Below are positions 9,385 through 23,609 of a DNA stretch of 55,796 nt, one piece after another (the first letter of the stretch is position 1; every line of letters begins with the position of its first letter). The stretch lies in IMG/VR virus record IMGVR_UViG_3300028198_000005, positions 1 to 55,796 of that record; one strand, written 5' to 3'. Both the position numbers and the translations under genes were made by a program. The stretch comes from a virus (taxonomy: Duplodnaviria; Caudoviricetes). A model generated the notes under the pieces. The model ran no database searches and had not been told where the DNA came from. It was given only the letters and a program-made list of their open reading frames with translations.

Positions 9385-9464
9385 GGTACCTTTTAAAATC
9401 ATACTTTTTCGCGGATGTCAAGCCTTTTCTTAAAAAAATATCAGAAAAAACTTATCTTTTTGGG

Positions 9465-9493: not shown

Positions 9494-9503
9494 CGGGGGC
9501 GTT

Positions 9504-9746: not shown

Positions 9747-9761
9747 AAAACATTTTTTTGG

Positions 9762-9790
9762 TTGACTCGAATCATTGATTGAATTATACT
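9762..9790 (+). promoter_or_regulatory. sigma70-type early promoter
   Basis: TTGACT-N17-TATACT, with ATG 10 nt downstream. Confidence 0.75.
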
Positions 9791-9800
9791 TTTTGCAGTT

Positions 9801-10550
9801 ATGGAACTACTCAGCATATCATTTGAAAACGCAAAGCTCAAGGGCATTTATCACTTCTCTCTTCCGAGCGGACACACTTGCCCCGGCGCAAAAAACTGCT
9901 TAACTAAAGCGGACAGGGTAACGGGGAAGCTCACGGATCAGCAGACAGAAGTGGACGGGATTATCTTTCGCTGCTATGCAGCAGGGATGGAGAATAGGTT
10001 TCCCAAAGTAAGGGCATCGCGCTGGCGCAACTTTGATCTGTTAAAAGAAAAGAAAAGCACAGCCGAAAAAACACAGTTAATTGTGGAGAGTATAAAAGCC
10101 ACGGGCCTGAAGCGTGGCGGGACATTGCGTGTGCATATCGGCGGCGATTATTATTCCCAAAGTTATTTCAACGCATGGATGAAAGCGGCAAGCTATTTCC
10201 CAAACGTGGTTTTTTATTCCTATACTAAAAGCATTAAGTTTTTGTTGGAGTACGCCACCGCAATGGGCGGTTTGCCAAAGAACTTTGTTTTTACCTGCTC
10301 GCGCGGTGGAAAGTATGACAATTTAATTCCCTCGACGATGGTTAAAAGCGCAAAGGTTTTCTTCAACAAGGACGAGGCTGATGCACTTGGTTTAGAGATT
10401 GACCACACCGACGATCTGGCGATTTCGGGTTCTGATGATTTCGCGCTTGTGATTCACGGAGCGCAGCCAGCGGGAAGTGAAGCCAGCAAAGCCCTTTCGG
10501 CTAATAGAAAAAAAGGCTTTACAGGGTACAGCGCAACCGCTAAAATTTGA
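9801..10550 (+). CDS. Gp88-like phage protein
   Basis: FSLPSGHTCPGA..C, CYA, RVHIGGDYYS and FYSYTKS motifs. Confidence 0.7.
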   Translation: MELLSISFENAKLKGIYHFSLPSGHTCPGAKNCLTKADRVTGKLTDQQTEVDGIIFRCYAAGMENRFPKVRASRWRNFDLLKEKKSTAEKTQLIVESIKATGLKRGGTLRVHIGGDYYSQSYFNAWMKAASYFPNVVFYSYTKSIKFLLEYATAMGGLPKNFVFTCSRGGKYDNLIPSTMVKSAKVFFNKDEADALGLEIDHTDDLAISGSDDFALVIHGAQPAGSEASKALSANRKKGFTGYSATAKI

Positions 10551-10621
10551 CCCGTGGAGCATACATGGTTCTGGGTCGGAGTAACGGTGTTTTTACTGAT
10601 GGCCTTCAAAAAATTATTTGA

Positions 10622-11101
10622 ATGACGAAAGTTATAGTACAGAAAGAAGGGACGAACTGGGCAGTCGGCATAGTTGGCGACACAAAAAGAGAAGTCGAAA
10701 GAAGATATTTCTATTTTTGGAATAATAAAGCGACAGACGGCGAACTGTTTTGGTTGAAAGATGAAGCCGCGCCATTCGTGGCATATTTTTGGACTGACAA
10801 GGACAGATTGAAAGAGTCATTGAAAAATGCCAGTTTATTGGAAGCGATGCAAGCGGGGTTTGGCGATGATTTCAAAGGTAAAAAAGGTGGGCTAATGCCC
10901 TTTGCGAAAGATATAGCAGAATCAAAATTTCTAGAGATTAAAACAGAGACGTTTATAGATAGAACAAAAAGATATAACTTCTACACACTAGGGAGCATAA
11001 AAGCAGAAAACTTTTATCCCGTTCCCCGGTCTGCTTTAGATCGGACTACGATTCACAATAAAAATGAATCTAACGGGGGTATATTCAAAAAAATAAAATG
11101 A
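10622..11101 (+). CDS. hypothetical protein
   Basis: 159-aa ORF. Confidence 0.6.
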   Translation: MTKVIVQKEGTNWAVGIVGDTKREVERRYFYFWNNKATDGELFWLKDEAAPFVAYFWTDKDRLKESLKNASLLEAMQAGFGDDFKGKKGGLMPFAKDIAESKFLEIKTETFIDRTKRYNFYTLGSIKAENFYPVPRSALDRTTIHNKNESNGGIFKKIK

Positions 11102-11280
11102 TAAACGACAATCAAGAACACACACGGCAAGCGGATTCCTTTGATGATGTTTATAGTATCGACCTCGGAGCTATAAAAGAGTTTAATACGGCCTACGAAA
11201 AATGGGCAAAGAAAAACAACATTCAAAGCGGATGGCAAAAGAACAAGGGACAATTTAATTGTAAAACTGTAAAAGAATGA
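11098..11280 (+). CDS. hypothetical protein
   Basis: Coupled ORF. Confidence 0.55.
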   Translation: MINDNQEHTRQADSFDDVYSIDLGAIKEFNTAYEKWAKKNNIQSGWQKNKGQFNCKTVKE

Positions 11281-11459
11281 AACTACCAAAAATAGATTTG
11301 CTAAATACTTATGTTTTTGAAACCAATCACGGTGAGAAAATAACAATAAAAGCATATTTTAAAGAAGAGGCGATTATTGAATTCCAAGAAGATTATCAAA
11401 AAATTGGAACCAGTTATTATAAACCCACTGTTTTTGTAAAAGTGGAAAAGGTGGCCTAA
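11277..11459 (+). CDS. hypothetical protein; its stop codon is the TAA of element E2
   Basis: Coupled ORF ending in TAA at 11457-11459. Confidence 0.55.
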   Translation: MKLPKIDLLNTYVFETNHGEKITIKAYFKEEAIIEFQEDYQKIGTSYYKPTVFVKVEKVA

Positions 11460-11529
11460 GTCGTTGACTACCAAGGACTTACGGCCGCGCCCCCCCCGCG
11501 GCGCTAAGTCCTTGTGCGACAGTGACTTA
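11457..11529. repeat. double-palindrome element E2
   Basis: TAAGTC-GTTGACTACCAAG-GACTTA, 23-bp C-rich spacer, TAAGTC-CTTGTGCGACAGT-GACTTA. Confidence 0.95.
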
Positions 11530-11542
11530 CGATGGACCTTAG

Positions 11543-11833
11543 TTAAAAGCGGTTTGCTGTACTATTTCCGGCAAGGAAACTAGTAGCGACTTTCACAACC
11601 CCGTAATGAATGCCTTTTATCGCGGTGGGTTTTTTCCATTTTTCCTTTGTTGTGTCAACCGTTATCTTTCTGTCGTAATGTTTAGAGCCGTGAGTGGGGT
11701 GTTTGTGACACCCACGATTGCCAGCTCTATATACATTGAAAAGGATAACTTTTCTAAACTTTTCCTTTTTGTCTTTTTGGGAAACGAAGCGCCAAGGATA
11801 GTTGGAGAGAAGTTTAGGCTTTTGATGTTTCAT
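11543..11833 (-). CDS. possible hypothetical basic protein
   Basis: 96-aa ORF on the locally coding strand; no motif. Confidence 0.3.
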   Translation of the reverse strand: MKHQKPKLLSNYPWRFVSQKDKKEKFRKVILFNVYRAGNRGCHKHPTHGSKHYDRKITVDTTKEKWKKPTAIKGIHYGVVKVATSFLAGNSTANRF

Positions 11834-11843
11834 GATTAAATAC

Positions 11844-11867
11844 CCCCCACCCCTTGCGGGGTGGGGG
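11844..11867 (-). terminator. strong GC hairpin downstream of the DUF932-like gene
   Basis: CCCCCACCCC-TTGC-GGGGTGGGGG perfect 10-bp stem; weak U-tract. Confidence 0.5.
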
Positions 11868-11881
11868 TGTGATGTGTTCCC

Positions 11882-12790
11882 CTAGACCGTCAGCGTGGTC
11901 TCTATTTTCTCCTTGACAAGAGCTTTGGTGGTGAGCTCTCCAAAACGCTTGGCGGAGTTCTGAGCCTTGACCAAGTTCCCCAGCATCGTCTTGCTGACTC
12001 GGTTGGCGTACTCGAAGCGATCACCTTGAACCTCATGGGTCAGGTGCTGTGTGGTGGCGTTGTACAGGTTGTACAGGTTGTCACTGCGTTGCTCAAGCCT
12101 ATCCTGATTAAGGTAAGCCTCGTTTTCCCAGATGAACTGGATGGAGTCCCGCATGGATTCAGCCAGCACCTTCTTGATGGCGAGGTTGTCGAGAATCAGA
12201 ACACCTTGCTCTTTGGTGATCGTGCGCTCGCGCAGTCCCTTGAACATGGTGAGGGAGGTCTCAAACTTCTCCTTGCAAACGGCGATAGAATTGCCGATGA
12301 AGTCCAGCGTCAGCTTGGAGCTGTGCTTTTTAGTGACGCTCGTGTCGTTGACCAGAGCAGTCATCCCGTTGGTGCAGATTTGGCGTAGAAGCCCAATCGA
12401 CCATGAAACCCCGCAACTTCTATCGAATGAGTTGTTAAGGGTCAAGCGCATACCGACCGCATCACCGTTGGCGACCTTGCCAGTAACGGTAGGGAAGTCG
12501 TACACCCCATAGAAACGTGCGCCGTCACGGGCAACAAATTTCTGGCTAGTGAAACCGCTTAAACCGTTTTTGGATAAAGCGTCTTCGACTGAATCAACAA
12601 TTTTACTATTGTTGACGATCTCGTACTTCTCGGTGGAAGTACCTAAGCAGACATTGCTGTCTGTGCGAAAGTTCCCCATTACTGGAGACTTCCCGATCAT
12701 GACAGGCTTGCCGCCACGACTGAACAGAGGCTCCTGCACGACTTGGTAGTCGTACTCGGAACTTGTAGTAGGATTTTTAGGTTTTCTCAT
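11882..12790 (-). CDS. DUF932-family protein
   Basis: YEIVNN, LNNSFDRS, RQICTNGM, KKHS and NLYNLYNATT motifs. Confidence 0.75.
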   Translation of the reverse strand: MRKPKNPTTSSEYDYQVVQEPLFSRGGKPVMIGKSPVMGNFRTDSNVCLGTSTEKYEIVNNSKIVDSVEDALSKNGLSGFTSQKFVARDGARFYGVYDFPTVTGKVANGDAVGMRLTLNNSFDRSCGVSWSIGLLRQICTNGMTALVNDTSVTKKHSSKLTLDFIGNSIAVCKEKFETSLTMFKGLRERTITKEQGVLILDNLAIKKVLAESMRDSIQFIWENEAYLNQDRLEQRSDNLYNLYNATTQHLTHEVQGDRFEYANRVSKTMLGNLVKAQNSAKRFGELTTKALVKEKIETTLTV

Positions 12791-12944
12791 AACAGTTGTT
12801 TCAAGTCCTTCCTCAGGACGCACTAATCATCTCATATTTTTGGAATCAAGTCAACCCCTTTATTGTCACTTTTTTAAAAAAATTTCTTTTATAAATCCTC
12901 AACATTGGCACGGTTCTTTCCGAAAAACCCACTTTATTGAAACT

Positions 12945-13017
12945 TAAGTCGTTGCGCTACAAGGACTTACGCGCGCCGGGGGGGCGCGGACGTAAGTCCT
13001 TAAGCGTCAATGGGTTA
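12945..13017. repeat. double-palindrome element E3 (whole-inverted form)
   Basis: TAAGTC-GTTGCGCTACAAG-GACTTA, 23-bp G-rich spacer, TAAGTC-CTTAAGCGTCAAT-GGGTTA. Confidence 0.95.
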
Positions 13018-13022
13018 GGTAT

Positions 13023-13058
13023 AAAAAAAACAACCCCTCGGCGTTGGCCAAGGGGTTG
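13023..13058 (-). terminator. rho-independent terminator
   Basis: CAACCCCT/AGGGGTTG stem with a T8 run on the minus strand. Confidence 0.7.
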
Positions 13059-13111
13059 CAGTTATGAGAGAAAACGCATTCCAAGATACGAGAATGCGTT
13101 CTCAAGAGATT

Positions 13112-13351
13112 TTAGAAAAGCCTCATGCTTTTAGCAAGCTTTTTCAAAAGGCTTTCCTTGCTTTCCAAGTAGCTCTCTACCTCTTCGCTTGTTGCGAGAC
13201 GTAGACTCTTGGCTTGCACGGAACCTTCTTCGCGCTTGTGATGTTCAGTCACTACCCGTGTGTTGCTGAACTGATTGGATATAACCCTTTCGACTCTCTT
13301 CTTTGGGACGTTGAAGTAGAGTGAACCGTTTCGTATGTCTTTGGTTTTCAT
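13112..13351 (-). CDS. hypothetical protein
   Basis: 79-aa ORF with its own TTGACT...TATACT promoter. Confidence 0.65.
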   Translation of the reverse strand: MKTKDIRNGSLYFNVPKKRVERVISNQFSNTRVVTEHHKREEGSVQAKSLRLATSEEVESYLESKESLLKKLAKSMRLF

Positions 13352-13392
13352 AACCGAGATAAGTATAGATTAAACAGGAGAAGGAGTCAAGT

Positions 13393-13671
13393 CTATTCTG
13401 AAATTGCTTGGCGTATCTTTTTCATCTTACCCTTCAAAAATGAAATAGCATCACAATTTTTGGCGTTGGTCTGCATGATGTGGCTCAGACTATATTCTAT
13501 TTTGCGCGTAAAGTCTTTGCGTAACGCATCCAACTTATCTGCATCTGCTCGCTTTATTGCGCGAGTCTTCTTGGCCGCTTTCTTCTTGTCAGCCTTCTTT
13601 ATTAAATGTTTAGTCTTCACTTTTTTTTCTCCGAATGCCTCTAGTAACTTGTCGTAATTGCTTACCTTCAT
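13393..13671 (-). CDS. Lys-rich hypothetical protein
   Basis: ATG at 13671 (MKVSNY). Confidence 0.6.
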   Translation of the reverse strand: MKVSNYDKLLEAFGEKKVKTKHLIKKADKKKAAKKTRAIKRADADKLDALRKDFTRKIEYSLSHIMQTNAKNCDAISFLKGKMKKIRQAISE

Positions 13672-13682
13672 ATTAAATAAAA

Positions 13683-14203
13683 TGGTGGCGGGAGTATTTG
13701 TGTACCCGCACCTTTTCAGTCCCCAGAAAACAAATGTTTCAGATCGACTTACTTCGGACTCACCCACGATTTTCCTCTGCCACTAGGCCGTTGTACTTCT
13801 CGCAGTCGCTACGTTACCCCTTTGGGAGGGGTTATTCCGTCACACCGAACTCTCTCCGTCGAGAGAGAAATTGATTTGAATGGCGGTCAATCAAGGGAGA
13901 AATCTCAGCCACCGGCTCCAACCCCAGTAAGCTCAGCAAAGCCCCGCTGCATCTTAATAGCAATCTGCACCATTCAAAATTAAATGAGTTGTTACCGCGC
14001 CACCAGTAAATGCACAGGTAAGTCCTGCTCCAGCGTAAGATGTCTTACCATCCCTGTCCCTAGCGCGTTTATAGCTTAAGGGCGACGGAGGCGTATTTAA
14101 ATCACCAACTCAAATTCAAAGAACAATTAAAAAGTGTCAGGGGTGATTAGCATTGCGTTCCCGCCCTAATCTTTTTTTGTTAAGTCAGCCCTGCCTGACT
14201 CGC
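13683..14203 (-). ncRNA. cluster of about four putative structured non-coding RNAs
   Basis: ORF-poor, more GC-rich 520 bp made of units each closed by terminal complementary ends; upstream TTGACA-N17-TAGACT promoter. Confidence 0.5.
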
Positions 14204-14240
14204 ATTTTATGAAAGCTCCCCTAAGGGAAAGTATAGTCTA

Positions 14241-14516
14241 TCAGCTTTCTGTTTCGCTGTCAACCTGAAAATCATCCTTTGAAGGAATTTGATTCTCTTT
14301 TAGACTCTTGCGAATGTACTCCAAAGCTACGCGCTGCTTCGCAACGGTAAGTTTGATTTGATTCAAGCTCAAGTCGTTAGCCTCTTCCAAGAAACCGAGA
14401 GCATCACCTACCATGCGAATCTCTTTAACAGCTTCGCGCTGGTTGCTGCTTCTGCGTTCGATTTCGTCTCTCCCCGCTTTAGTGCGGGCCTGTAACCAAT
14501 GTAATGGGATATCCAT
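14241..14516 (-). CDS. hypothetical protein
   Basis: 91-aa ORF, GTTATG start behind a promoter. Confidence 0.6.
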   Translation of the reverse strand: MDIPLHWLQARTKAGRDEIERRSSNQREAVKEIRMVGDALGFLEEANDLSLNQIKLTVAKQRVALEYIRKSLKENQIPSKDDFQVDSETES

Positions 14517-14529
14517 AACTTTTTATATA

Positions 14530-15123
14530 TTACTTTGTTTCTGCTTGAAGGTCAAGCAAATTTTTCATCTTATCCTTTGGGGTATAGAAAATATTGTAGT
14601 GCGGCCCGATAGCGGTCTTGTCTCGGATGATCACCCTGTCAGACTTGTGAATGGGTGTTTTCTCTACATCATCAACAAAAGTCTCATGTTTATAGGGGTT
14701 GTAATACCCTCCGCGAAAATCTTCGCTCGACTCTGGGACGCATTGCTCGCAGTAGTCGTATGGTTTGTCGCTACAGTCACAGATACTGTACTTTTCGTAT
14801 AACTCATTATCAACCTCGCGAAAGCGTTCCTTGGAAACGTCACCAATCTCATGACATTTTCCGACAATATAAGCGTGAACATTCTTACGCTTTTCCCGAA
14901 GGACTCGCTGCCGACCTGCTGGCTGAACCCGAAACTTGGCATCATGCAATTCGACACGGTGAGCATGGCAGTATAACAGTCCCGTCTCAGCATCGATCAC
15001 CGACAGGCAATCCAAGTTCAGATTAAAATAAACCTTCACACGATCCGGTGCGACTTCGATGCCGTCTACCATCTTGCGTGGCCCTGCATCCTTCCAACTA
15101 ATGAATCCTTTTCTTTCCCTCAT
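14530..15123 (-). CDS. conserved phage hypothetical protein
   Basis: VYFNL...GRQRVLREKRKNVHAY...YNPYK..TFVD motif, with a Cys-rich insertion. Confidence 0.7.
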   Translation of the reverse strand: MRERKGFISWKDAGPRKMVDGIEVAPDRVKVYFNLNLDCLSVIDAETGLLYCHAHRVELHDAKFRVQPAGRQRVLREKRKNVHAYIVGKCHEIGDVSKERFREVDNELYEKYSICDCSDKPYDYCEQCVPESSEDFRGGYYNPYKHETFVDDVEKTPIHKSDRVIIRDKTAIGPHYNIFYTPKDKMKNLLDLQAETK

Positions 15124-15192
15124 AACTTCAAATAGTATAATTCAGTTCTTCTTGAATGTCAACGATTAATTTCAACTTTTTTAAAATTAAAT

Positions 15193-15266
15193 TGGACGCG
15201 AGGGACGGAATCGAACCGTCAATTGTTCTTTTGCAGAGAACCGTCTTACCGTTTGACCACCCCGCG
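15193..15266 (-). tRNA. tRNA-Cys(GCA)
   Basis: Cloverleaf: acceptor CGCGGGG/CCTCGCG, anticodon arm GTTCT-CTGCAAA-AGAAC, T arm GACGG-TTCGATT-CCGTC, U73 and encoded CCA. Confidence 0.92.
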
Positions 15267-15416
15267 AGCACAAGAAAATAGTCTCATGCTTTCGGAAACT
15301 TGTCAACAGAAAAAAATAAGAAATAAGAAATCATTAAATAGGAAATAGGAAACGGTTAAATACTAAATAGAGGGACGTTTTATAAATATATTTTTGGAAA
15401 AATTTTATAATTTACC

Positions 15417-15489
15417 TAAGTCACTGATTACCAAGGACTTACGCGCGCCCCCTCCCCCCCGGCCTAAGTCCTTGTAGCGCAACGACTTA
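15417..15489. repeat. double-palindrome element E4
   Basis: TAAGTC-ACTGATTACCAAG-GACTTA, 23-bp C-rich spacer, TAAGTC-CTTGTAGCGCAAC-GACTTA. Confidence 0.95.
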
Positions 15490-15553
15490 CGACTTTAAAA
15501 AGACACAAAAAAAACTCACGCTTTTTAGCGTGAGTGATGAGGGTTGGCACGGT

Positions 15554-15799
15554 TTATGCCTTGCCGAAGCACGTGGGGCACGACTCGAAAATTTTGCACC
15601 AGCACACCTCCTCGACCTCGGCCATAGCCAGATCGCGCTCGCGATCCTCGCGCTCGCGTTGCGCTTGCTGGGCGGCTTCGGATTCCATAGCGGCGTCCTG
15701 CGCGGCGATGTCAGCCTCGCGCACCTCGTCGCAATGACGTTCCAATTCGAACACCTCTTCGCATGAGAGGTCGGCGTATAACGATTTCGTAAGTCCCAT
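15554..15799 (-). CDS. small acidic protein with a C-terminal Cys cluster
   Basis: GTTATG start behind a TTGACT promoter; E/D-rich; CWC...CPTC. Confidence 0.6.
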   Translation of the reverse strand: MGLTKSLYADLSCEEVFELERHCDEVREADIAAQDAAMESEAAQQAQREREDRERDLAMAEVEEVCWCKIFESCPTCFGKA

Positions 15800-15854
15800 A
15801 ACTGATTAGAGAGTAACAGATTTCCGGAAAAAGTCAACAAAAAATCTCACTTTT

Positions 15855-16070
15855 TTAATACCATTGTTTGCGGTCGGTTTCCTGATCATAGCCCGCGTGG
15901 TAGGCCTCCACCTCGGCCTTGGCCATATCCTCCACCTTGACGCGAGGAGCGTTCCCCGTGCCGTTCGGATAATGGTGGGGCTCGCTGCCCCTGCCGTAGT
16001 AACGGTCAGCGGATCCCCGATCATAGGGGCTGCCGTGCTTCGTGTCGTATTTATTCATTTCAGTCCTCAT
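15855..16070 (-). CDS. conserved small phage protein
   Basis: HGSPYDRGSADRYYGR...EAYHAGY motif. Confidence 0.7.
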   Translation of the reverse strand: MRTEMNKYDTKHGSPYDRGSADRYYGRGSEPHHYPNGTGNAPRVKVEDMAKAEVEAYHAGYDQETDRKQWY

Positions 16071-16077
16071 AATAAAA

Positions 16078-16368
16078 TTACCAATCGCAGCATCCACCGT
16101 AATCCTCGTCGGTGCCAAAACCAGCGCTCGCGAGCGCGTCCCCGTCCGCTTCTGCGTCTGAGCGGAAACCGTCCCACGGCTCATCCGTGGCATCATCGAT
16201 AGACCACACCACGACACGAGTGCCGTCCGCGAGATGCTCGACGACATCCTCGCCCGCACGTTGGGCCAAATCGATGGCATCATTCAGCGCACTGTGATCC
16301 GCGTCGCCCATGTTCTGCGTGAAACTCCGCACGACACCCTCTTCGTCAACAACTGAGTACTTCCTCAT
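16078..16368 (-). CDS. highly acidic small phage protein
   Basis: DADGDALASAGFGTDEDYG-type C-terminus; TTGACA-N17-TATACT promoter. Confidence 0.7.
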   Translation of the reverse strand: MRKYSVVDEEGVVRSFTQNMGDADHSALNDAIDLAQRAGEDVVEHLADGTRVVVWSIDDATDEPWDGFRSDAEADGDALASAGFGTDEDYGGCCDW

Positions 16369-16495
16369 AACGCAAAACAGTATACCAGAAACCGGCGAGA
16401 TGTCAACCAATAATCTCACTTTTTTTCTTTTTTTTTCTTATGATTTTTGGCACGGTTGGCACGGAAACCCTTCTTAAAACGCTTTTCTGGAAACT

Positions 16496-16568
16496 TAAGT
16501 CACTGAGTATCAGGGACTTACGCGCGCGGGGGGGCCGCGGCCGTAAGTCCTTGTGGCTTAACGACTTA
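16496..16568. repeat. double-palindrome element E5 (spacer-flipped form)
   Basis: TAAGTC-ACTGAGTATCAGG-GACTTA, 23-bp G-rich spacer, TAAGTC-CTTGTGGCTTAAC-GACTTA. Confidence 0.95.
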
Positions 16569-16701
16569 CGACGTGGTTCCTTAGCATGTTGCGTGCCAAG
16601 TCAGGGGCTTTTATCTTGTGTCGCGATTACAGTAATCGCCAGCATTATTAAAAACGCAATGGTCGATATTAAAACAGTTGGGTCAGGGACTAAGTGGAGA
16701 A

Positions 16702-16890
16702 TCATTTGTAATTTGTAAAGTTGAAGTTGAAGGTTTTCTTTTCTTTCGCCGTCAATTTCAATTCTGTATTTTCAGCTTTAGCAATTACAGTTTCCCTTAA
16801 TTTTTTTCTCCTTCGCGCGTCACCTTCGCAAGCTGCGCGATCGTTTAAACTTAAGCCGCTCCAAATTTCGATTGAATTTTGTTTTTCCAT
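16702..16890 (-). CDS. hypothetical protein
   Basis: 62-aa ORF in a minus-strand run. Confidence 0.5.
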   Translation of the reverse strand: MEKQNSIEIWSGLSLNDRAACEGDARRRKKLRETVIAKAENTELKLTAKEKKTFNFNFTNYK

Positions 16891-16893
16891 AAT

Positions 16894-17130
16894 TTATCTT
16901 TTCCTTTTCTTTTGTCGGTTGGTGGCTTTTGTTTTATTTGATCCGGCTGGTCTTTCAAAAACTGTATGGACATTATTGCGACATCCGTCTTTACGGCCAT
17001 TGGAATCTGTTCCTTGGCTGCCCCAACTCCTTTTACCGCCGCTAGAACTATACAACATTTCTTGGTGGGCTTCTAGTCCTCCTAGCGGCATATGTCCGAG
17101 ATCGCCCATGTGTCGTTTTTCGTTTTTCAT
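16894..17130 (-). CDS. hypothetical protein
   Basis: Coupled to the upstream ORF. Confidence 0.5.
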   Translation of the reverse strand: MKNEKRHMGDLGHMPLGGLEAHQEMLYSSSGGKRSWGSQGTDSNGRKDGCRNNVHTVFERPAGSNKTKATNRQKKRKR

Positions 17131-17390
17131 GCGCGCCCTCCGTGTATGGCTTGCGCCATGTTAATAAGGTTGACGGCCTTGACCATACGATCCCAGCGGA
17201 AACGTCGAGTCTGGCCGGTTGGGCCTTGGTTGTCGTGGATCTCGACCGTTACCCCAGAAAAGGTTTCCCCCTCGGTAGTGTTGCGGAAGTGGTCAACGAT
17301 TACCCCAAGGTAGTTGTAAACGTGGTTGCCGTGATTTACCTCGCCCTCGTGGCGAGCCGGTTGATATTCGAACTTGTACATGTCTCTCAT
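17127..17390 (-). CDS. small protein, possible WYL/SH3-like fold
   Basis: C-terminal TRRFRWDRM; own promoter. Confidence 0.55.
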   Translation of the reverse strand: MRDMYKFEYQPARHEGEVNHGNHVYNYLGVIVDHFRNTTEGETFSGVTVEIHDNQGPTGQTRRFRWDRMVKAVNLINMAQAIHGGRA

Positions 17391-17432
17391 AACTTCAAAA
17401 AGTATAACTGATTTTTCCTTAAACGTCAACCC
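17384..17432 (-). promoter_or_regulatory. early promoter/start cassette, identical copy at 20688-20736
   Basis: GGGTTGACG-N17-TATACTTTTTGAAGTTATGAGAG, 49 bp exact duplicate. Confidence 0.85.
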
Positions 17433-17659
17433 CTAATTTGATATTTTAACCGTGGCAGCCAAGATTCTTTTTTCCATTCTAAAGCGAGCCGGTGGTTTTC
17501 CTTATTCTTTTTCCATCTCGCGATCCGAAGATCCAGCTTGAAAGCCGCGTAAAGCACTTTCTTAATCAAAAACACCTGCAACCTTACGGCCACGGCTAGC
17601 GGATGCAGAATCTTTTCAGCAATCGCAAAAACCGTTCCTTTTTCATTTTCATTTTTCAT
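17426..17659 (-). CDS. hypothetical protein
   Basis: ATG 17659 after an AGTGAG-NNN-CTCACT leader hairpin. Confidence 0.5.
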   Translation of the reverse strand: MKNENEKGTVFAIAEKILHPLAVAVRLQVFLIKKVLYAAFKLDLRIARWKKNKENHRLALEWKKESWLPRLKYQIRG

Positions 17660-17718
17660 TTTTTCAGTTTTTAGTGAGCCTCTCACTTCCTTAATCATGA
17701 AGCAATCAGGCAAAAAGG

Positions 17719-18120
17719 TCAACCCTTAAAATTAACTTTTTTAACTTTTGATTGGTCTTGCTTGTTTTTAGCTTCCCAATTAGCTATCCTTAAGCGCATC
17801 CTGTGGTTCGTCTGAAGCATTCGCATTGCAGTATTCCAACCGTGTTTCATTCCGTCAAGTAGAGCTTTTTGCTCAAGTCCATCTACTTCTCTGGTGTGCG
17901 CTTGGACACCACTTGCGGCCTTTCTGATCTTGAACCATTCTGATTTGATCAAGTCCGCTTCCGCTTGTTTGAAAATCTCCAACGGCCGCGGCTGTTTCCA
18001 TGTTTTGGCGAGTTCGGCATCCTTCAGGTCATTGGCTTCAGCGGCTTGTTTGTCAGCAGCAGCCATGTCCATTTTGGCGATCCAATTTTCATTCTTGTCT
18101 TTATTTTTCATTTTTTTCAT
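17719..18120 (-). CDS. hypothetical helical protein
   Basis: ATG 18120 after TTGACC-N17-CAGAAT and a leader hairpin. Confidence 0.6.
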   Translation of the reverse strand: MKKMKNKDKNENWIAKMDMAAADKQAAEANDLKDAELAKTWKQPRPLEIFKQAEADLIKSEWFKIRKAASGVQAHTREVDGLEQKALLDGMKHGWNTAMRMLQTNHRMRLRIANWEAKNKQDQSKVKKVNFKG

Positions 18121-18189
18121 TTCAGTGAGTCTCTCACTTCCCTTATTCTGAAGCAACCAGAGAAAAAGGTCAACCCTTAAATTTAATTT

Positions 18190-18432
18190 TTATCCGCAAG
18201 TCGGAAACAAGCGGCCCCTGTTCAATTGATCGCCGCCCCAACCGAAGGCGATTTCCTGACCGTCTCTCTCGATGATCCAAGGCCACATATTCCCATCCAA
18301 AACCTGCGCCATTTCGCAAGCGGCATCAAATGCAGAGTGGTCTTTGCCTCGTTCGTTCGTGAACTTTTTGCTGCCCACGCGGTTGGTGTCTTCGTCTCTC
18401 CAACTTAACTCGTATGTGATCTTGTCTCTCAT
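18190..18432 (-). CDS. hypothetical protein
   Basis: 80-aa ORF with its own promoter. Confidence 0.65.
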   Translation of the reverse strand: MRDKITYELSWRDEDTNRVGSKKFTNERGKDHSAFDAACEMAQVLDGNMWPWIIERDGQEIAFGWGGDQLNRGRLFPTCG

Positions 18433-18479
18433 AACTTCAAAAATTATCGTTTATTTCGCCTTAAAAGTCAACACTTATT

Positions 18480-18701
18480 TTAAAGTATATTTGGCATACG
18501 CCGCCGCGTTACTACTATCTCGGCCGCTTTCCCGATCCTCTTAAGATTAGCCTCACGCTTGAACTGCTCCCAAGTGGGGCGATCGCTTTCGGCGGTCGTC
18601 ATGTCTAGTTGCAGAGCTTTCCACTCTTTCATGTCGGCCCTTCGGAGTGCTTGAACGCGTAGGGCAAGTTGCTTGAATTGGTTGTCTGTCATGTCTCTCA
18701 T
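18480..18701 (-). CDS. hypothetical protein
   Basis: MRDMTD start behind TTGCAA-N17-GACAAT. Confidence 0.55.
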   Translation of the reverse strand: MRDMTDNQFKQLALRVQALRRADMKEWKALQLDMTTAESDRPTWEQFKREANLKRIGKAAEIVVTRRRMPNIL

Positions 18702-18744
18702 AACTGGGTTTATTGTCTCAAAAAACTGATAAGGTTGCAAGCTT

Positions 18745-18936
18745 TTATTCGCACTCGCGGCATTGGAACCAGTCGGTATCAGTCCATTGGCTGGCCTCTT
18801 CATGGCTAATGTGAAGCTCTTCATTGCATCCGCAGCAGGATACCAGTACTTTTTCGTTAGCCTTTTTGACTGCCTCTCGGCGGTTCCGGAGGTTGAAGTG
18901 TCGGCGAATTTCGGTCATTGTCATTGTGTTTTTCAT
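18745..18936 (-). CDS. Zn-finger protein, paralog of 23937-24101
   Basis: VLVSCCGCNEEL...DWFQCRECE. Confidence 0.65.
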   Translation of the reverse strand: MKNTMTMTEIRRHFNLRNRREAVKKANEKVLVSCCGCNEELHISHEEASQWTDTDWFQCRECE

Positions 18937-19101
18937 GTTGTTCTTAATCTCTCTCACTGAAAAAAGTATAGCAGAATCCGAGAAAAAGTCAACCAATAAT
19001 CTCACTTTTTTTCATTTTATTAAAGAAAGTTTTTTTTGTAATCGGGAGGGGTTGGCACGGTTCTACTTTGAAAAACGTTATTTTTTACCTTTTAAGAGTC
19101 G

Positions 19102-19174
19102 TAAGTCGTTGAAGCTTAAGGACTTACGCGCGGGGGGAGGGGGCGGCCGTAAGTCCTTGGTACTCAATGGGTTA
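19102..19174. repeat. double-palindrome element E6 (whole-inverted form)
   Basis: TAAGTC-GTTGAAGCTTAAG-GACTTA, 23-bp G-rich spacer, TAAGTC-CTTGGTACTCAAT-GGGTTA. Confidence 0.95.
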
Positions 19175-19254
19175 GGGTATAGAAAACGCCCCGCCGAGAA
19201 GAAATGAAGAAAGACCCGACGGGGCGCGCTGTTAGTTATGAGGTAACAGAAAAA

Positions 19255-19404
19255 CTATAATTTATTAAAAGTCTTTTTTAGTTTACGGCTTACTTTCAAC
19301 CGGCGCTGAACAGTATCATTGATTTCTTGTTCTGTCAATTCTTCTTTTTCGAAGTTTGGGTCTTTGCCTCTATACGGTTTAGTGTGACGGTATTCTTGTT
19401 TCAT
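19255..19404 (-). CDS. hypothetical protein (49 aa)
   Basis: MKQEYRHTKPYRGKDPNFEKEE..., read manually. Confidence 0.45.
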   Translation of the reverse strand: MKQEYRHTKPYRGKDPNFEKEELTEQEINDTVQRRLKVSRKLKKTFNKL

Positions 19405-19407
19405 AGT

Positions 19408-19737
19408 TTATAAGTACTCTTTTCTGTCTGGTTCTACATTTTTTTTGTAGTGGTCAAAGAATTTTTTTCTAGCTTGTTTCCTTAACTCTTTAAAGTATCC
19501 ATCAAAGCTCATTGAGACTTCCCACTTAGAATCCTCGCTCCAAGGCATCCCCTGTATGTCATCAACAACAATATTAACGATTTCTTCTATTGGCTTGCCC
19601 CATAGATTGCTCTCGTCTTTTACTAGAAACGATCTAGGACTGCACATCGATAACTGGCCTTCCTCTTTTTGGTTGTCCCACTTATCGCTAGCTTCTTCCC
19701 AAATTTCCTCCAAGCCTTTTTCTATTGTAGAGTTCAT
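19408..19737 (-). CDS. hypothetical protein
   Basis: 109-aa ORF. Confidence 0.6.
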   Translation of the reverse strand: MNSTIEKGLEEIWEEASDKWDNQKEEGQLSMCSPRSFLVKDESNLWGKPIEEIVNIVVDDIQGMPWSEDSKWEVSMSFDGYFKELRKQARKKFFDHYKKNVEPDRKEYL

Positions 19738-19746
19738 TATAGTTTA

Positions 19747-20208
19747 TTATAGTTTATAGAAAGCGTGTTGACCTATAACTTTGACAGGCTTTTCGCCTTT
19801 GGCCCAGTATGGTTTTTTCTTCATCCATGTGGCATGGTAGTGATTAGCAAAGCCAACGTAGTCGCGGCTTAAAAGTTTGATATTCTTTGCCAACCCCAGC
19901 GCGTACTTACCTTGCGGAACCTTCAGCAGATGTTCTAGGTCTTTTAATTGCTTACCGTTCCAGCAACTAAACTGATAGGGTTTGAGACAGATTTCGGTTG
20001 GTGTTCTCTTTCTCTCGAATGCACGTTGAGCAATGACAGCAGCCACCGCGTACATTCCCTTTTCCCCTTCTCCCCTTGCTTCGGCAAGGATAGTGATCGC
20101 AATTATTTTCGTTTCACGGGTGAATTTTGCGTTGTTATGCGTGTGCGCATAAACAGAACAAAAGATGATAGGTAGGGCTAGTAGTGTTATTATTTTTTTC
20201 ATTTTCAA
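19747..20208 (-). CDS. SleB-like cell wall hydrolase (Hydrolase_2) with signal peptide
   Basis: AEARGEGEKGMYAVA, QFSCWN, ANHYHA, PYWA and IGQHAFY motifs. Confidence 0.88.
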   Translation of the reverse strand: MKMKKIITLLALPIIFCSVYAHTHNNAKFTRETKIIAITILAEARGEGEKGMYAVAAVIAQRAFERKRTPTEICLKPYQFSCWNGKQLKDLEHLLKVPQGKYALGLAKNIKLLSRDYVGFANHYHATWMKKKPYWAKGEKPVKVIGQHAFYKL

Positions 20209-20366
20209 TATCCGTTATATGTTGTGGTTGTGCCGTACTTTTTGCGCTTGGCATCAGCGGCCTTCCTCATTGTATCATGGTAAGAGCCTTCGCTCCAGTC
20301 TGATTTTGGATAATGTCTCCAAATGTTCATTGCCGTTATTTCTTCTTTTATTATTGGTTTTTTCAT
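20205..20366 (-). CDS. hypothetical protein
   Basis: MKKPIIKEE start; coupled to the hydrolase gene. Confidence 0.45.
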   Translation of the reverse strand: MKKPIIKEEITAMNIWRHYPKSDWSEGSYHDTMRKAADAKRKKYGTTTTYNGY

Positions 20367-20370
20367 GGGT

Positions 20371-20694
20371 CTACCGATTCCGTTTTCTTTCAAGACATCT
20401 GAGGACTTTTGCTTCGGCGAGTTCATCCTCGCCAGCGATACTCCGCTCATCAATGCCGCGCTCGCGTAAACTTTTGGTTACAGACTCGTCAGATAACCAT
20501 TCAAGATCTTCGCTATGTTCGATCTCTCGGAGGGTGTCGCTGATAGTTTCGAGCCTTTGCTTGAGTTGGCCTAGTCGGAGCTGGATATGTGCCTTGTCAA
20601 CTAGGTTGGTTTGTGCAAGTATATCGACCATACCGGTGATATCCTCAATCTTGCTCGCTTCGTTTCTGATGTGTTTTTGTGTTTCAACTCTCAT
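20371..20694 (-). CDS. hypothetical coiled-coil protein
   Basis: Start lies within the duplicated promoter cassette. Confidence 0.6.
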   Translation of the reverse strand: MRVETQKHIRNEASKIEDITGMVDILAQTNLVDKAHIQLRLGQLKQRLETISDTLREIEHSEDLEWLSDESVTKSLRERGIDERSIAGEDELAEAKVLRCLERKRNR

Positions 20695-20722
20695 AACTTC
20701 AAAAAGTATAACTGATTTTTCC

Positions 20723-21037
20723 TTAAACGTCAACCCTTAAATCTAATTTTTTCAACTCTTCATTAGTCTCCGCTATTCGCTTTTGGAGGCTGTCCTTCTC
20801 GGTTTGCAGCCTTATCCTTGCGGCTTCCGAATCTGAAGTGTTGGCGAAATAATTAACGATTGTCTCGACGATAACGGTCATCGATACACCCAATCGACTG
20901 GACAGATCTTCGAGCTGCTGTTTTGTCTCCACTTTCAGCCGATAAGTAGCCATTACTCTATCGGGGATTTCTGGACTTTTCCCAACTTGGACGTTCGTTC
21001 GTTCAGCGACTGGGATTCTTTTGATTTTGGTATTCAT
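20723..21037 (-). CDS. ribbon-helix-helix (CopG/Arc-like) DNA-binding protein
   Basis: ATYRLKVETKQQLEDLSSRLGVSMTVIVETIV followed by a coiled coil. Confidence 0.65.
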   Translation of the reverse strand: MNTKIKRIPVAERTNVQVGKSPEIPDRVMATYRLKVETKQQLEDLSSRLGVSMTVIVETIVNYFANTSDSEAARIRLQTEKDSLQKRIAETNEELKKLDLRVDV

Positions 21038-21113
21038 TGTTATTTTTTTTTGCTTTAGTGAGTCTCTCACTTCCCCTAGTATGAAGCAACCAGAGAAAAA
21101 GTCAACCCCTTTA

Positions 21114-21635
21114 TTATCTTTTTGGCCGTCTCCCGTTGTCCCTATATTTGGGGCCGCGTGGGCCTTTGTATGGTTTTGGGGGTTGTGTGGGCCGTTTGCT
21201 CCAGTGAACGACGATCTCGGAAGGGTCGTAGCACTCGTTCGCGAGAACCTCGCCCAAGGTTACTTTGGCTTGGTGGTCGTCGGATAGGTGATGACGATGG
21301 CCTTCCGTCCCTTCGGGGAAGTACTCAAGGAATGACCACGCTATGCCGTCATCTAGTTTGCCGCAAGTGTCGTGGTTTAGGTAAACGTCCTGACCGTTCT
21401 CTGCCGCAAAAGCAATGGCATCAGCAAAACCGATTCTGTTTGCGGGCCAAGCCCATGTGCCGCAGTCGTAAACCGCGTAATGCGCGCCGAGTGGGACGCC
21501 GATCATCCATGCGTGACCCGAATGGTGGGAATCGGGCGGCGATGCGTATTTGCCCGATTTACACATAGGGCAACCCCTGCTGTGCTTTTCCATTGTCTCT
21601 TCGCTGTGGTCTATGTTGTCGTGTATTTCGCTCAT
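21114..21635 (-). CDS. hypothetical protein (Cys/His-rich)
   Basis: 173-aa ORF with its own promoter. Confidence 0.6.
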   Translation of the reverse strand: MSEIHDNIDHSEETMEKHSRGCPMCKSGKYASPPDSHHSGHAWMIGVPLGAHYAVYDCGTWAWPANRIGFADAIAFAAENGQDVYLNHDTCGKLDDGIAWSFLEYFPEGTEGHRHHLSDDHQAKVTLGEVLANECYDPSEIVVHWSKRPTQPPKPYKGPRGPKYRDNGRRPKR

Positions 21636-21692
21636 AACTTCAAAAAGTATAGTTTATTCGATGGTGGAAGTCAACCCTTAAAAGTCACTTTT

Positions 21693-21908
21693 TTACCATT
21701 TCACCACTCGGAACCATTCTCCGCGTACTCGCCTATTTAATGGCGTGTAGCTTGTCCACTCGTCCTGACTGATCTCTTTGACCGTTTGGACTCCGTCAAC
21801 CCAAGGCCCTTTGACCTTGACCATCTTCGGGCGACTGGCTTCAACCAACTCACGGGCGAATAACTCTTCATTTTCGAAGACCTCTTCTAGTTCGATTCTA
21901 TCCCTCAT
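21693..21908 (-). CDS. hypothetical protein
   Basis: MRDRIE start behind TTGACT...TATACT. Confidence 0.6.
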   Translation of the reverse strand: MRDRIELEEVFENEELFARELVEASRPKMVKVKGPWVDGVQTVKEISQDEWTSYTPLNRRVRGEWFRVVKW

Positions 21909-22046
21909 AACAGAAAACAGTATATCACAATCGCCGAAAAAGTCAACTTAAAAAGTCACTTTATTTCACTTTTTTTATTTTTATTTTTTGCTGTATTTGG
22001 CACCAGTTGGCACGCGTCCTGCACAAAAGTGTGATGTTTTAAAACC

Positions 22047-22119
22047 TAAGTTGTTGATTACCAAAGACTTACGCGCGCGGGGGGGCCGCGGCCGTAAGTC
22101 CTTGCGGCACAGTGACTTA
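22047..22119. repeat. double-palindrome element E7 (spacer-flipped form)
   Basis: TAAGTT-GTTGATTACCAAA-GACTTA, spacer identical to E5, TAAGTC-CTTGCGGCACAGT-GACTTA. Confidence 0.95.
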
Positions 22120-22198
22120 CGTACTAGCGGTGTTAGCATGTAGCGTGCCATGTAGCACCGATTATACTTTATTGTTTTAATTGTAATTATTAGATTAT

Positions 22199-22227
22199 AA
22201 AAAAACCCCGCCTCTTTCAAGGCGGGG
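22199..22227 (-). terminator. rho-independent terminator
   Basis: CCCCGCCT/AGGCGGGG stem with a T-run on the minus strand. Confidence 0.75.
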
Positions 22228-22301
22228 ACAAATGAATACAAGTAGATATGTTAGTTAACAACAACGGTTGACCTCCACCGTCAGGGGAAATTGTGCTGAG
22301 C

Positions 22302-22847
22302 TTAAGCCTTGGGGCCAAAGGCAATGCTGCCCTTGATCTTGCGCTTGCTTTTGCCGACCTTTTCCTTGGCCCACGTTAGCAGGCCTTTCTTGTTTAGGTC
22401 GACCATTACCGCGTTGACGCGATCCACTTCCTTCTTTGTCCAGAAGGGCGTACCCATGAACGTGGCGACGAACTTACCGGACAGGGAGTAGAACCCATCG
22501 TGGCCAGCGGCCTTGGCGTATTCTTCCTTGGCGTTCAGTAACGCCTTGACGGCCAGCCAAACGGCCCATTGCCGTGTGGTTAGCTTCACGTCCTTATGGG
22601 CGTGAGTGTACCTGCTGGACTTGACCTTAGCCTTGGCCTTAGCCTTGACTAACGATACCTTGGCCTTCGTCGTCTTGATGACGACCTTCTTCTCCCTCTT
22701 GGGGGACGTTACCGCGCTTACGGTGATGCTGCGCCCGGGGGCGTGTAGGCAATTCGCCAGAGCTAATGCGCCCTTCACGTTGCCGTTGATCAGTAACTGA
22801 CTTACCGCATTATGGATAGCGGCTGAACCTTCATTTTGCTTACTCAT
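22302..22847 (-). CDS. basic Lys/Ala-rich protein, possible C-terminal wHTH
   Basis: KAKAKAKVK tract; LTTRQWAVW...LNKKGLL; strongly GC3-biased codons. Confidence 0.65.
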   Translation of the reverse strand: MSKQNEGSAAIHNAVSQLLINGNVKGALALANCLHAPGRSITVSAVTSPKREKKVVIKTTKAKVSLVKAKAKAKVKSSRYTHAHKDVKLTTRQWAVWLAVKALLNAKEEYAKAAGHDGFYSLSGKFVATFMGTPFWTKKEVDRVNAVMVDLNKKGLLTWAKEKVGKSKRKIKGSIAFGPKA

Positions 22848-22906
22848 CTCGTTGTGTTTTTACCAAGAGGCGTTCGCCTCCATACCTCTAATGTAAGGGC
22901 TTCGAG

Positions 22907-23068
22907 CTATTCTGTCAACCCTTTTTTAAATTCTTCCGGCACCTTGTCTGGTGCTGGCTCGTCGTAGTCCATCTCGTTATCCTCCATCTTGGGCGGTGCG
23001 CCGTAGGGGAAGTTATTCGCTGCTACGAAGTATCTGCTTGTATTGTCGGTTAAGCTAAAGAATCTCAT
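22907..23068 (-). CDS. small acidic protein
   Basis: MRFFSLTD start adjacent to the upstream stop. Confidence 0.45.
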   Translation of the reverse strand: MRFFSLTDNTSRYFVAANNFPYGAPPKMEDNEMDYDEPAPDKVPEEFKKGLTE

Positions 23069-23069: not shown

Positions 23070-23303
23070 TTATTGATTGTCGTTTGCATCTTCTTGGCAC
23101 TCATCGCAGATCGTCCCGTGATCATACTCATTGCCCCAGCTATGCACGCTGATCGTGCCTTCCCACTCGCTCTTTGCGCCGTCTTCCCTGTTGCATATGT
23201 CGCAAACCAATTGACCAAAATTTTCTTTTGGTGTTAAGCTGCTATGAATGAAGCCTGCAAAGGCCGCTCCGTATGTGTTTATTGTTTCTTTCTTGTCCCT
23301 CAT
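23070..23303 (-). CDS. small Zn-finger protein
   Basis: CDIC...CDEC; own promoter. Confidence 0.6.
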   Translation of the reverse strand: MRDKKETINTYGAAFAGFIHSSLTPKENFGQLVCDICNREDGAKSEWEGTISVHSWGNEYDHGTICDECQEDANDNQ

Positions 23304-23345
23304 AACTTCAAAAATTATCGTTTATTTCTTTGGATAAGTCAACAA

Positions 23346-23609
23346 CTATTCGCAAGAACCTTCGTAACATTCCGCGATGCTCACGACTTGGATCATCTCG
23401 CCGTTTGTCCATGTCTTACCGTGGATATCCTTTACGACTGTTTCCGCATGGAATTTGTCGATCATGTCGGCCTCGCTTGTGCCGAGCGGGAAGGTCGTGT
23501 GAATCCTGTTGAATCTGGTAAGCTCATGGCTGCCATTGTAAGCGGGGTTGCGCTCGATGTTGAACACTACGTTGAGGAATCTCTTTTTGGTTTTCATTGT
23601 ATCTCTCAT
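23346..23609 (-). CDS. hypothetical protein
   Basis: MRDTMK start behind TTGCAT...TATACT. Confidence 0.6.
   Translation of the reverse strand: MRDTMKTKKRFLNVVFNIERNPAYNGSHELTRFNRIHTTFPLGTSEADMIDKFHAETVVKDIHGKTWTNGEMIQVVSIAECYEGSCE

Follow-up and report, generated by a model that had tools for sequence, protein, structure and literature searches.

Nested-palindromic intergenic elements of an uncultured marine phage occur as isomers fixed by locus among close relatives and are probably not states of a flip/flop switch

Do short palindromic repeats that appear in mirror-image and mixed forms within one phage genome mark a working DNA switch? The question is raised by IMG/VR virus record IMGVR_UViG_3300028198_000005 (Caudoviricetes; 55,796 bases, rated 38% complete), the whole of which is called the window below. 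Between its early genes a pattern parse finds seven elements (E1 to E7) of 73-74 nucleotides (nt) each, in which two palindromes flank a spacer. An initial annotation, made from the letters of this DNA, described them as flip/flop isomers, some being inversions of the whole element and others (E5 and E7) inversions of the spacer alone, as expected from an invertase or from hairpin or cruciform resolution. Comparison with relatives leads us to a different answer. We take each isomer to be an arrangement tied to its locus instead of one state of a switch, and we consider it probable that the elements are phage-specific nested-palindromic intergenic cassettes, with isomers fixed at each locus, shuffled by exchange between copies and carrying dyads that are putative paired binding sites.

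All seven elements follow one plan: a 10-mer, 5 nt and the reverse complement of the 10-mer, then a spacer, then the same three-part unit again. Four half-sites of the form TAAGTC(C/G)TT(G/A) in alternating orientation thereby build two 25-bp dyads, which flank a spacer of 23 nt (24 in E1) that is made of G and C only and contains a C- or G-run. The spacer is bounded by inverted repeats, the inner arms CAAGGACTTA and TAAGTCCTTG, perfect over 10-12 bp, and in all elements the inner arms differ little from TAAGTCCTTG. Outer arms are variants of TAAGTC-ACTG or TAAGTC-GTTG, except that the right outer arm of E3 and E6 is a TAACCCATTG variant. The repeat is well beyond chance, as all 10 exact matches of the inner 10-mer in the window lie inside the seven elements and the 25-bp dyad pattern has 8 matches, against 0 for a reversed-pattern control.

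The elements, listed without strand, differ in their dyad centres and in the sense of their spacers. E1 (9311-9384) joins an ACTAT dyad through a 24-nt C-rich spacer to a CGCTG dyad, E2 (11457-11529) an ACTAC dyad through a C-run spacer to a TGCGA dyad, and E4 (15417-15489) an ATTAC dyad through the spacer C5TC7 to a TAGCG dyad. The other four have G-rich spacers. E5 (16496-16568) consists of an AGTAT dyad, a G-run spacer and a TGGCT dyad, and E7 (22047-22119) of an ATTAC dyad, the same G-run spacer and a CGGCA dyad; the identity of these two spans a 39-nt core, outside which their sequences differ. E3 (12945-13017) has a CGCTA dyad, a G-run spacer and a dyad with the variant outer arm CAATGGGTTA, and E6 (19102-19174) has an AAGCT dyad, the spacer G6AG5 and a GTACT dyad with the same variant outer arm. 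The parse therefore bears out what the initial annotation had seen: an A-N-T-A-Y centre (X) on the left and a G+C-rich centre (Y) on the right of E1, E2 and E4 with C-rich spacers, and the same X-to-Y order in E5 and E7 with an identical G-rich spacer (E1, which it cited, lies outside the span 11457-22119 to which it was assigned).

The same annotation took E3 and E6 for whole-element inversions, and this description suits one better than the other. The spacer of E6 matches that of E4 at 18/23 positions as reverse complement versus 9/23 directly, with the single T/A interruption in register, and GTACT, the centre of its right dyad, becomes an A-N-T-A-Y word when reverse-complemented. The left dyad of E3 is the exact reverse complement of the right dyad of E4 (an identical 25-mer), but AGCGT, on the right, does not correspond to an X centre read in reverse. 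A near match between the reverse complement of the E5 spacer and the E2 spacer had been offered as evidence of spacer inversion; at 18/23 it is unremarkable against a null in which the C-run is kept between random G/C flanks (mean 15.5, P = 0.16).

An active flip/flop, in which an invertase or hairpin/cruciform resolution inverts the spacer or the element, should yield both orientations at each locus. Several features invite that reading, namely the perfect inverted repeats of the inner arms, the equal frequency of both isomer classes in the wider family, an ERCC4-domain nuclease encoded in the window, and a fold of every element, on either strand, into one long hairpin (z-scores -2.4 to -7.8). 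In this fold the X centre lies opposite the Y centre in a 5x5 internal loop, with the run as apical loop; the marks of polarity are therefore merely the unpaired parts of a quasi-palindrome. We compared orientation in assembled contigs (Logan, IMG/VR), searching the marine metagenome contigs with a pattern in which the AT-centred dyad and the inner arm are set while the spacer may vary freely. Seventeen marine metagenome runs hold at least half of the window's sampled words, and orthology, assigned from the flanks abutting each element, was found for 91 of 167 elements in 91 contigs.

Orientation is constant at each locus among close relatives. Where flanks are at least 85% identical the run has the polarity seen in the window in 69/69 orthologues (E1 4/4, E2 9/9, E3 7/7, E4 7/7, E5 13/13, E6 8/8 and E7 21), and where they are less than 85% identical 15 of 22 agree, 4 are opposite and 3 are too weak to call. 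At E7 all four arms are identical and the polarity is the same in 28/28 orthologues, whose flanks are 71-100% identical. Similarly, 11/11 orthologous spacers in IMG/VR contigs are unflipped, seven pairs being near-identical and three or four 82-85% identical. Inversion of a spacer is expected, from the reversed identities, to add at least 9 differences, whereas contigs of run X2 show 1 difference over E2 and E3 together, 0 at E4, 0 at E6 and 2 at E1, and those of run X5 show 2 at E2 and 1 at E4. Among the joints listed for contigs of other runs (15 of 28), none has a strand change at an element. Contigs from all four runs do break within the E5 spacer (16524/16541-16544), a break that we attribute to its 39-nt identity with E7 and not to inversion.

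The genes for such a switch were not found either. Profiles for serine (PF00239) and tyrosine (PF00589) recombinases match in 0/5 phage records, including G000 (38% complete) and G001 (a 127.7-kb record, 88% complete), and their controls were positive in 12/14 and 14/14 genomes; other large open reading frames (ORFs) yielded no recombinase. To our knowledge, moreover, 23 nt is far below the length of any invertible segment of the Hin/Gin or Fim type. Such switches resemble the elements in having a segment bounded by inverted repeats and both orientations among copies, but differ from them in segment length, in their recombinase and in orientation, which here is fixed per locus. Parvovirus termini likewise combine asymmetric parts within a palindrome with two orientations; there flip and flop lie at a linear genome end in about equimolar amounts, whereas here seven internal loci show one orientation each, and the contig ends are not known genome ends.

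What the polarity does follow is the flanking sequence. In the lineage of the window, TTGGCA(C/T) motifs 36-55 nt away and pointing in face the G-run in 60/63 unique cases. A distal TTGGCACGG motif lies 40 nt left of E3 (12905-12913, plus strand) and another 50 nt left of E6 (19052-19060, plus strand), two tandem copies lie 49 and 40 nt left of E5 (16447-16464, plus strand), and TTGGCACC together with TTGGCACG-N4-CTGCA lies 50 and 40 nt left of E7 (21997-22023, plus strand), all pointing in. It follows from this rule that the spacers of E3, E5, E6 and E7 share one orientation relative to their flanks; what differs among these four is the side that carries the AT-centred dyad. In fact, a 117-nt unit of motif plus element (repeat family D6) is common to E3, E5 and E7 in direct orientation, and the right flank of E1 resembles the reverse complement of the left flanks of E7 and E5 (scores 16 and 13; null 95th percentile 11). 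In G001 the rule holds for 7/7 motif-bearing elements, with the motif 29-31 nt away, the eighth scanned pair being the left part of a triple array. Since motif, G-rich sense and ATTAT loops turn jointly there, its two 'C-rich' copies are whole-cassette inversions. Fixed polarity among orthologues, its tie to the flanks and the missing recombinase together speak against inversion of the spacer by an enzyme or by hairpin/cruciform resolution, and we regard an active flip/flop as very improbable. Alignment of orthologous elements had been proposed as a check on the inference of active inversion; orientation proves fixed in close relatives and the X-to-Y polarity does not hold in a larger set, so that this inference is largely refuted by that check.

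At single loci, units are replaced and not flipped. In relatives with flanks 93-100% identical the E3 site holds either its own or an E6-like spacer, and the E5 site either the E7-type or an E6-like spacer. With flanks 97-100% identical the E6 site holds its own or the E5/E7-type spacer and/or an AAGCT versus ACTAT left loop, and run X16 carries the swapped E6 allele (joint 19112-22066). One case is ambiguous. An 81%-identical E2 orthologue has a G-run in place of the C-run of E2 between near-identical G+C flanks, and because these flanks are near-palindromic its spacer matches that of E2 almost equally well directly (17/23) and reversed (16/23). This change may be a small hairpin-loop inversion, which cannot here be told from replacement. 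Comparable small inversions, in which a hairpin loop turns round between short inverted repeats, are reported for plastid DNA. There too the unpaired parts of a quasi-palindrome change orientation over evolution without a dedicated enzyme; the difference is that the near-palindromic G+C flanks of the present elements make inversion and replacement look alike.

Larger changes also abut the elements. A 307-nt segment (11530-11836) adjoining the right edge of E2 is missing from 9/10 window-like E2 orthologues; relatives that lack it carry a sigma-54-like motif at this place, which the left junction of the segment seems to cut. The segment contains ORFs 11543-11833 (minus strand) and 11606-11839 (plus strand). 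Orthologues of E5 join to other right flanks, and a contig of run X12 has a 3.3-kb deletion (17383-20688) between two identical promoter repeats of 48-49 nt. As a separate observation, in a lineage that shares about 80% identity with the window the tRNA-Cys gene, which in the window lies left of E4, is found directly left of an E2-like element in the opposite orientation, with end points at elements (contigs L296, L297, L330, L334, L363, L366, L369 and L375). Because spacers and loops are exchanged and indels and rearrangements abut the elements, the earlier description of them as recombinationally active holds in an evolutionary sense; it is not supported in the sense of a working flip/flop switch.

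The elements have a constant place between genes. Read in gene direction, a minus-strand cassette begins with the terminator of the upstream gene and the element; about 40 nt further on come the complement of TTGGCACGG and an A-rich stretch, followed by hexamers of the TTGAC/TATAC type and, about 10 nt beyond the second of these, a start codon. Canonical terminators adjoin E3, E4, E6 and E7, the right dyads of E3 and E6 adjoining minus-strand ones, and E4 lies between the tRNA-Cys gene (15193-15266, minus strand) and the terminator of gene 15554-15799. The first TAA of E2 is the stop codon of ORF 11277-11459 (plus strand). One putative promoter part, with TTGAC-/TATAC-type hexamers and a start codon, lies at 16366-16412 (minus strand), about 90 nt left of E5, and has counterparts left of E3, E6 and E7 (repeat families D1, D5 and D8). 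E1 is the mirror image of this order, upstream of a plus-strand sigma-70-like promoter and gene 9465-9746. In the distant record G003 the same order of terminator, element, AT-rich stretch and promoter recurs with other flanking motifs. By their sequence, the promoters of these cassettes are predicted to be sigma-70-like.

From these observations we propose that the cassette marks module boundaries of the early region. It comes after the terminator of a small gene, the sigma-70-like promoter of the next gene follows about 90-110 bp further on, and TTGGCAC (sigma-54-like) motifs flank it. Whole cassettes would be oriented in accordance with the adjacent gene module and flanking motif. In E5 and E7 the mixed arrangement would reflect gene conversion of a spacer, loop or dyad between copies on an evolutionary scale; since all arms are inverted repeats of one another, an exchange can land in either orientation. 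One conversion event might have made the E5/E7 arrangement, with spread of the 39-nt core afterwards.

What might the dyads themselves do? Half-sites are conserved across phages whose shared AAA+ protein is 36% identical, while centres and spacers vary. Among 79 non-identical elements, would-be partner arms match no better than non-partners: the short hairpins match at 593 and 605 of 790 positions and the outer stem of the long hairpin at 560/790, against 622 and 614 of 790 for non-pairing control arms, so that no stem covariation was found, and where an arm varies to the TAA(A)CCC type no compensating change accompanies it. Conserved half-sites, variable centres and lack of covariation together form the pattern of dyad binding sites around an uncontacted centre. 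The dyads would thus be paired sites, of operator or upstream-site type, through which a dimeric DNA-binding protein would regulate the promoters next to them or insulate these. A CRISPR mini-array (repeat-spacer-repeat) was considered and rejected, since the spacers are G+C-only, conserved within the genome and, we infer, shorter than usual.

A proximal form of the flanking motif complicates this assignment. It has -24/-12 spacing, which we take to be the sigma-54 promoter consensus, and the TTGGCACG-N4-CTGCA sequence left of E7 shares this spacing. Proximal copies pointing in lie 31 nt from the right edge of E5 (TTGGCACG-N4-ATGCT, 16583-16599, minus strand) and 32 nt from the right edge of E7 (ATGGCACG-N4-ATGCT, 22135-22151, minus strand). 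The perfect pattern occurs in the window at 16583-16598 and 22135-22150 on the minus strand and at 22008-22023 and 25883-25898 on the plus strand, 9 times in G001 (8 of them within its 8-kb element cluster, 90.5-98.6 kb) and 34 times in 10 kb of G005, the record of contig L138 (20.4-30.6 kb; L138:250-2950); reversed-pattern controls gave 0 matches. In G005 the motifs form inward-pointing pairs around an array of GC spacer, TAAGTC dyad and GC spacer, between small plus-strand genes. A G-rich, spacer-like run, GGTGGCGGTCGGCGGGGGGTGGG, at 24260-24292 is without flanking TAAGTC dyads and adjoins a one-mismatch sigma-54-like motif (24213-24228, minus strand) at the end of a minus-strand block; it may be a decayed element.

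The proximal motif makes an RNA function worth weighing, in which the element would be transcribed from a sigma-54-like promoter as a long 5' hairpin (a stabiliser, a processing site or an RNA-polymerase-modifying signal) whose loop polarity is neutral and drifts. In the window, in G001 and in many relatives, 29-32 nt separate the motif from the edge of the element; from the usual distance between -12 and +1, transcription is then predicted to start 2-5 nt ahead of the first arm. The motif is also conserved where flanks are not, E5 orthologues with an unrelated surrounding flank still keeping it, and every strand folds as one hairpin. On the other hand, the compensatory changes that a stem should leave are missing, as described above, conserved stems with variable loops are, we infer, the reverse of what most RNA hairpins bound by proteins show, none of the elements has an Rfam match at E up to 1, and the window's motifs are mostly directed against the genes beside them. 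We think an RNA element unlikely.

The same motifs invite comparison with sigma-54 promoters and their AAA+ enhancer sites, given that -24/-12 motifs flank the elements and that paired dyads resemble activator sites. Activator sites of sigma-54 enhancers, however, lie 80-150 bp upstream, whereas here the dyads come immediately downstream of the predicted start, beginning 9-13 nt past the -12 part of the motif on its downstream side. No activator gene was found among the AAA+ matches, which are clamp-loader-like or, as we read the sequence, Clp-like; matches to PF00158 are generic to AAA+ proteins, and the control was positive in 14/14 genomes. Two candidates were set aside on these grounds. 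The RuvB-like AAA+ protein at 8029-9006, considered as binder or activator, leads to clamp loaders in PHROGs, and its Sigma54_activat match covers only the P-loop region; the Sigma54_activat match of G001 lies in a protein with two AAA+ domains that reads as Clp-like. According to PMC4591121, sigma-54 holoenzyme binds promoters in an inactive state. A bolder proposal would be that an uncultured aquatic phage clade runs its early region with the host sigma-54 holoenzyme, and that chains of TAAGTC dyads and G+C spacers, rebuilt in either orientation by copy-to-copy recombination, serve as enhancers, operators or holoenzyme-parking sites of a novel type. We hold this as a rather unlikely conjecture; among the literature matches listed, no title describes phage use of sigma-54-type promoters. 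If it were true, copy-to-copy recombination of the chains would yield the isomers and drive the shuffling of modules.

Several points weigh against fixed cassettes with DNA-binding dyads and should be stated together. An element that begins 2-5 nt after a predicted start fits an RNA 5' hairpin as well as it fits an operator. The proximal sigma-54-like motif is coupled to spacer sense less strictly than the distal one (27 C-run, 12 G-run, 6 weak), and its coupling differs between phages, facing the G-run in G001 and the C-run in the window. The 4 opposite orthologues among those with flanks less than 85% identical mean that polarity changes over longer times; three of them represent one E1-site sequence and one is at the E5 site, and all have a different spacer sequence. 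Assemblies drop rare variants, so a minority isomer may be present at a locus, and with the window 38% and its best relative 88% complete a recombinase could lie in unseen DNA. The ERCC4-domain protein at 35506-36441 is a structure-specific nuclease, which makes cruciform cutting possible. Finally, a binder of the element was not found, the 20 small ORFs being without a Pfam DNA-binding domain.

The cassettes are not confined to the window. Once a first collection pattern, which was too loose and admitted chance hairpins, had been replaced, 171 unique element sequences were collected in uncultured marine and freshwater phage contigs, and the four-half-site plan was found in about 29 further IMG/VR contigs, 91 metagenome contigs and one short contig of a metagenome-assembled genome (MAG). 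Copies cluster in early-gene regions, with 7-8 in 8 kb of G001, 9 in L099 and 7 each in L145 and L157. Within one phage the spacers agree in length and sequence, and between phages they vary, at 20-21, 23, 25 or 27-28 nt. Other chains exist as well, such as dyad-spacer-dyad-spacer-dyad (L135, L138 and L150) and a mirror spacer-dyad-spacer (L138). When spacers of the 23-24-nt lineage are oriented G-rich, the left centre is A-N-T-A-Y in 34 cases versus 5 and the right centre its reverse complement in 42 versus 4. This mirror rule of the AT-type centres implies that each dyad has an outer-to-inner polarity independent of the spacer. Arrangements with the AT centre left and the GC centre right (18), GC left and AT right (18), AT on both sides (13, each a near-perfect long palindrome) and GC on both sides (3) were counted, and both isomer classes are therefore real and equally common in the family.

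A megablast of 9000-23000 gave no nucleotide match in cultured phages, and the terminase is less than 26% identical to that of any cultured phage, so that there is no close cultured relative. The DUF932 gene beside E2 and E3 has a sole IMG/VR relative (43% identity), in L159, which is without an element. Orthology of E2 with the element at L150:567 was considered through the neighbouring gene and rejected, as the neighbour proteins are not similar (E = 0.41). The literature matches listed for the inner 10-mer look like unrelated primer uses, and those listed for phage palindromes hold nothing relevant. If the reading given here holds, the family is undescribed and widespread, without a match in Rfam or in the searched literature.

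Many copies per genome, with spacers homogeneous within and different between genomes, could also suggest a miniature mobile element of the REPIN or MITE type, inserted either way and mobilised by a transposase in trans. REPINs, as described in PMC3337134, are two imperfect palindromes inverted around a spacer that form a hairpin, and the likeness to REPINs and BIMEs (PMC3337134, PMC3116915) extends to intergenic position and copy number. The present elements differ in being phage-borne, in their fixed place between terminator and promoter, in lacking covariation and in the absence of a RAYT-type gene, the Y1 transposase domain (PF01797) being found in 0/5 phage records. No target-site duplication is visible in the flanks, and no empty site occurs among the 91 contigs, a weak point since these were selected for holding an element. 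Nor was a dispersed family found on bacterial chromosomes: the full architecture occurs, among the matches listed, at 1 of at least 120 bacterial loci matching the core pattern, a 17.7-kb MAG contig. A mobile element of this type is accordingly quite improbable. That contig (L239), binned to a freshwater actinobacterium, carries as many as 6 full elements; it probably represents either a prophage or a phage contig that entered the bin.

Could the elements serve as DNA structure alone, as a cruciform or G+C clamp acting as supercoil insulator, bidirectional terminator back-up or recombination hot spot with no specific binder? They directly follow terminators or stop codons, rearrangement junctions coincide with them, and their G+C-only core stands out in a genome of 40% G+C. 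A G+C-rich centre should nevertheless hinder extrusion of a cruciform, separate canonical terminators already stand beside E3, E4, E6 and E7, and it is half-site sequence, beyond symmetry, that is conserved across distant phages. We find a purely structural role hard to credit, if slightly less so than an active switch.

The nearest parallel in role is found in T4-type phages. Their PeSLs (promoter-early stem-loop cassettes) combine a sigma-70-like promoter with a terminator stem-loop and, as PMC2839356 and PMC4122927 describe them, are repeated cassettes between small non-essential genes in plastic regions, where recombination between copies gives indels and replacements. The 3.3-kb deletion between promoter repeats, the spacer and loop swaps and the 307-nt indel at E2 make the likeness. 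Here, in contrast, the double dyad with its G+C spacer is a separate third part between terminator and promoter, and sigma-54-like motifs are present. The elements are thus closest to PeSLs in role and to REPINs in shape, and they fail the defining tests of invertible switches, parvovirus termini, REPINs and curated RNA families.

The surroundings of the elements hold further repeats and genes. Conserved promoter-start cassettes precede most small minus-strand genes, each with TTGAC- and TATAC-type hexamers and, about 10 nt on, a start codon, so that the mRNAs would be near-leaderless, and many of the proteins start with MRD or MRE; such cassettes lie at 15111-15195, 17378-17462, 18420-18504, 20682-20766, 21623-21707 and 23291-23375 in addition to the D5 and D8 sites. 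AT-rich repeats of the AAATA(A/G)GAAATA type (family D10) lie left of E1 (9068-9211) and E4 (15314-15369), the left flank of E4 resembling that of E1, and in runs X5, X12 and X16 22 nt are inserted at 15326. At 13678-13866 (minus strand) the sequence matches the full model of the manA RNA motif (RF01745; E = 1.7e-8), its 43.3 bits falling below the gathering score of 55.2. Just upstream of the large terminase gene (36452-38275) lie genes for a PhoH-like protein (32260-33036), a protein with sigma-70 region 2 (33739-34419), which is a candidate phage sigma factor, and the ERCC4-domain nuclease, which also has an HNH-associated repeat. The most widely shared neighbour is a gene of the GP88 family (PF17338, no known function), present in the element-rich region of 7 phage loci (window 9801-10550, L150:2749-3480, L099:4558-5292 and 8115-8894, L138:4058-4687, L145:4158-4928, L157:8915-9754 and L080:1177-1881); its protein has no solved relative.

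These findings carry a general caution: when paralogous palindromes occur as mirror-image and mixed isomers, this alone is not proof of a functioning DNA switch. If the present reading holds, the family offers a sequence handle for early-gene modules in uncultured phages, for palindrome-driven modular shuffling and for testing phage use of sigma-54-type promoters. The actinobacterial MAG contig, in turn, provides a possible lead to the host of part of this family.

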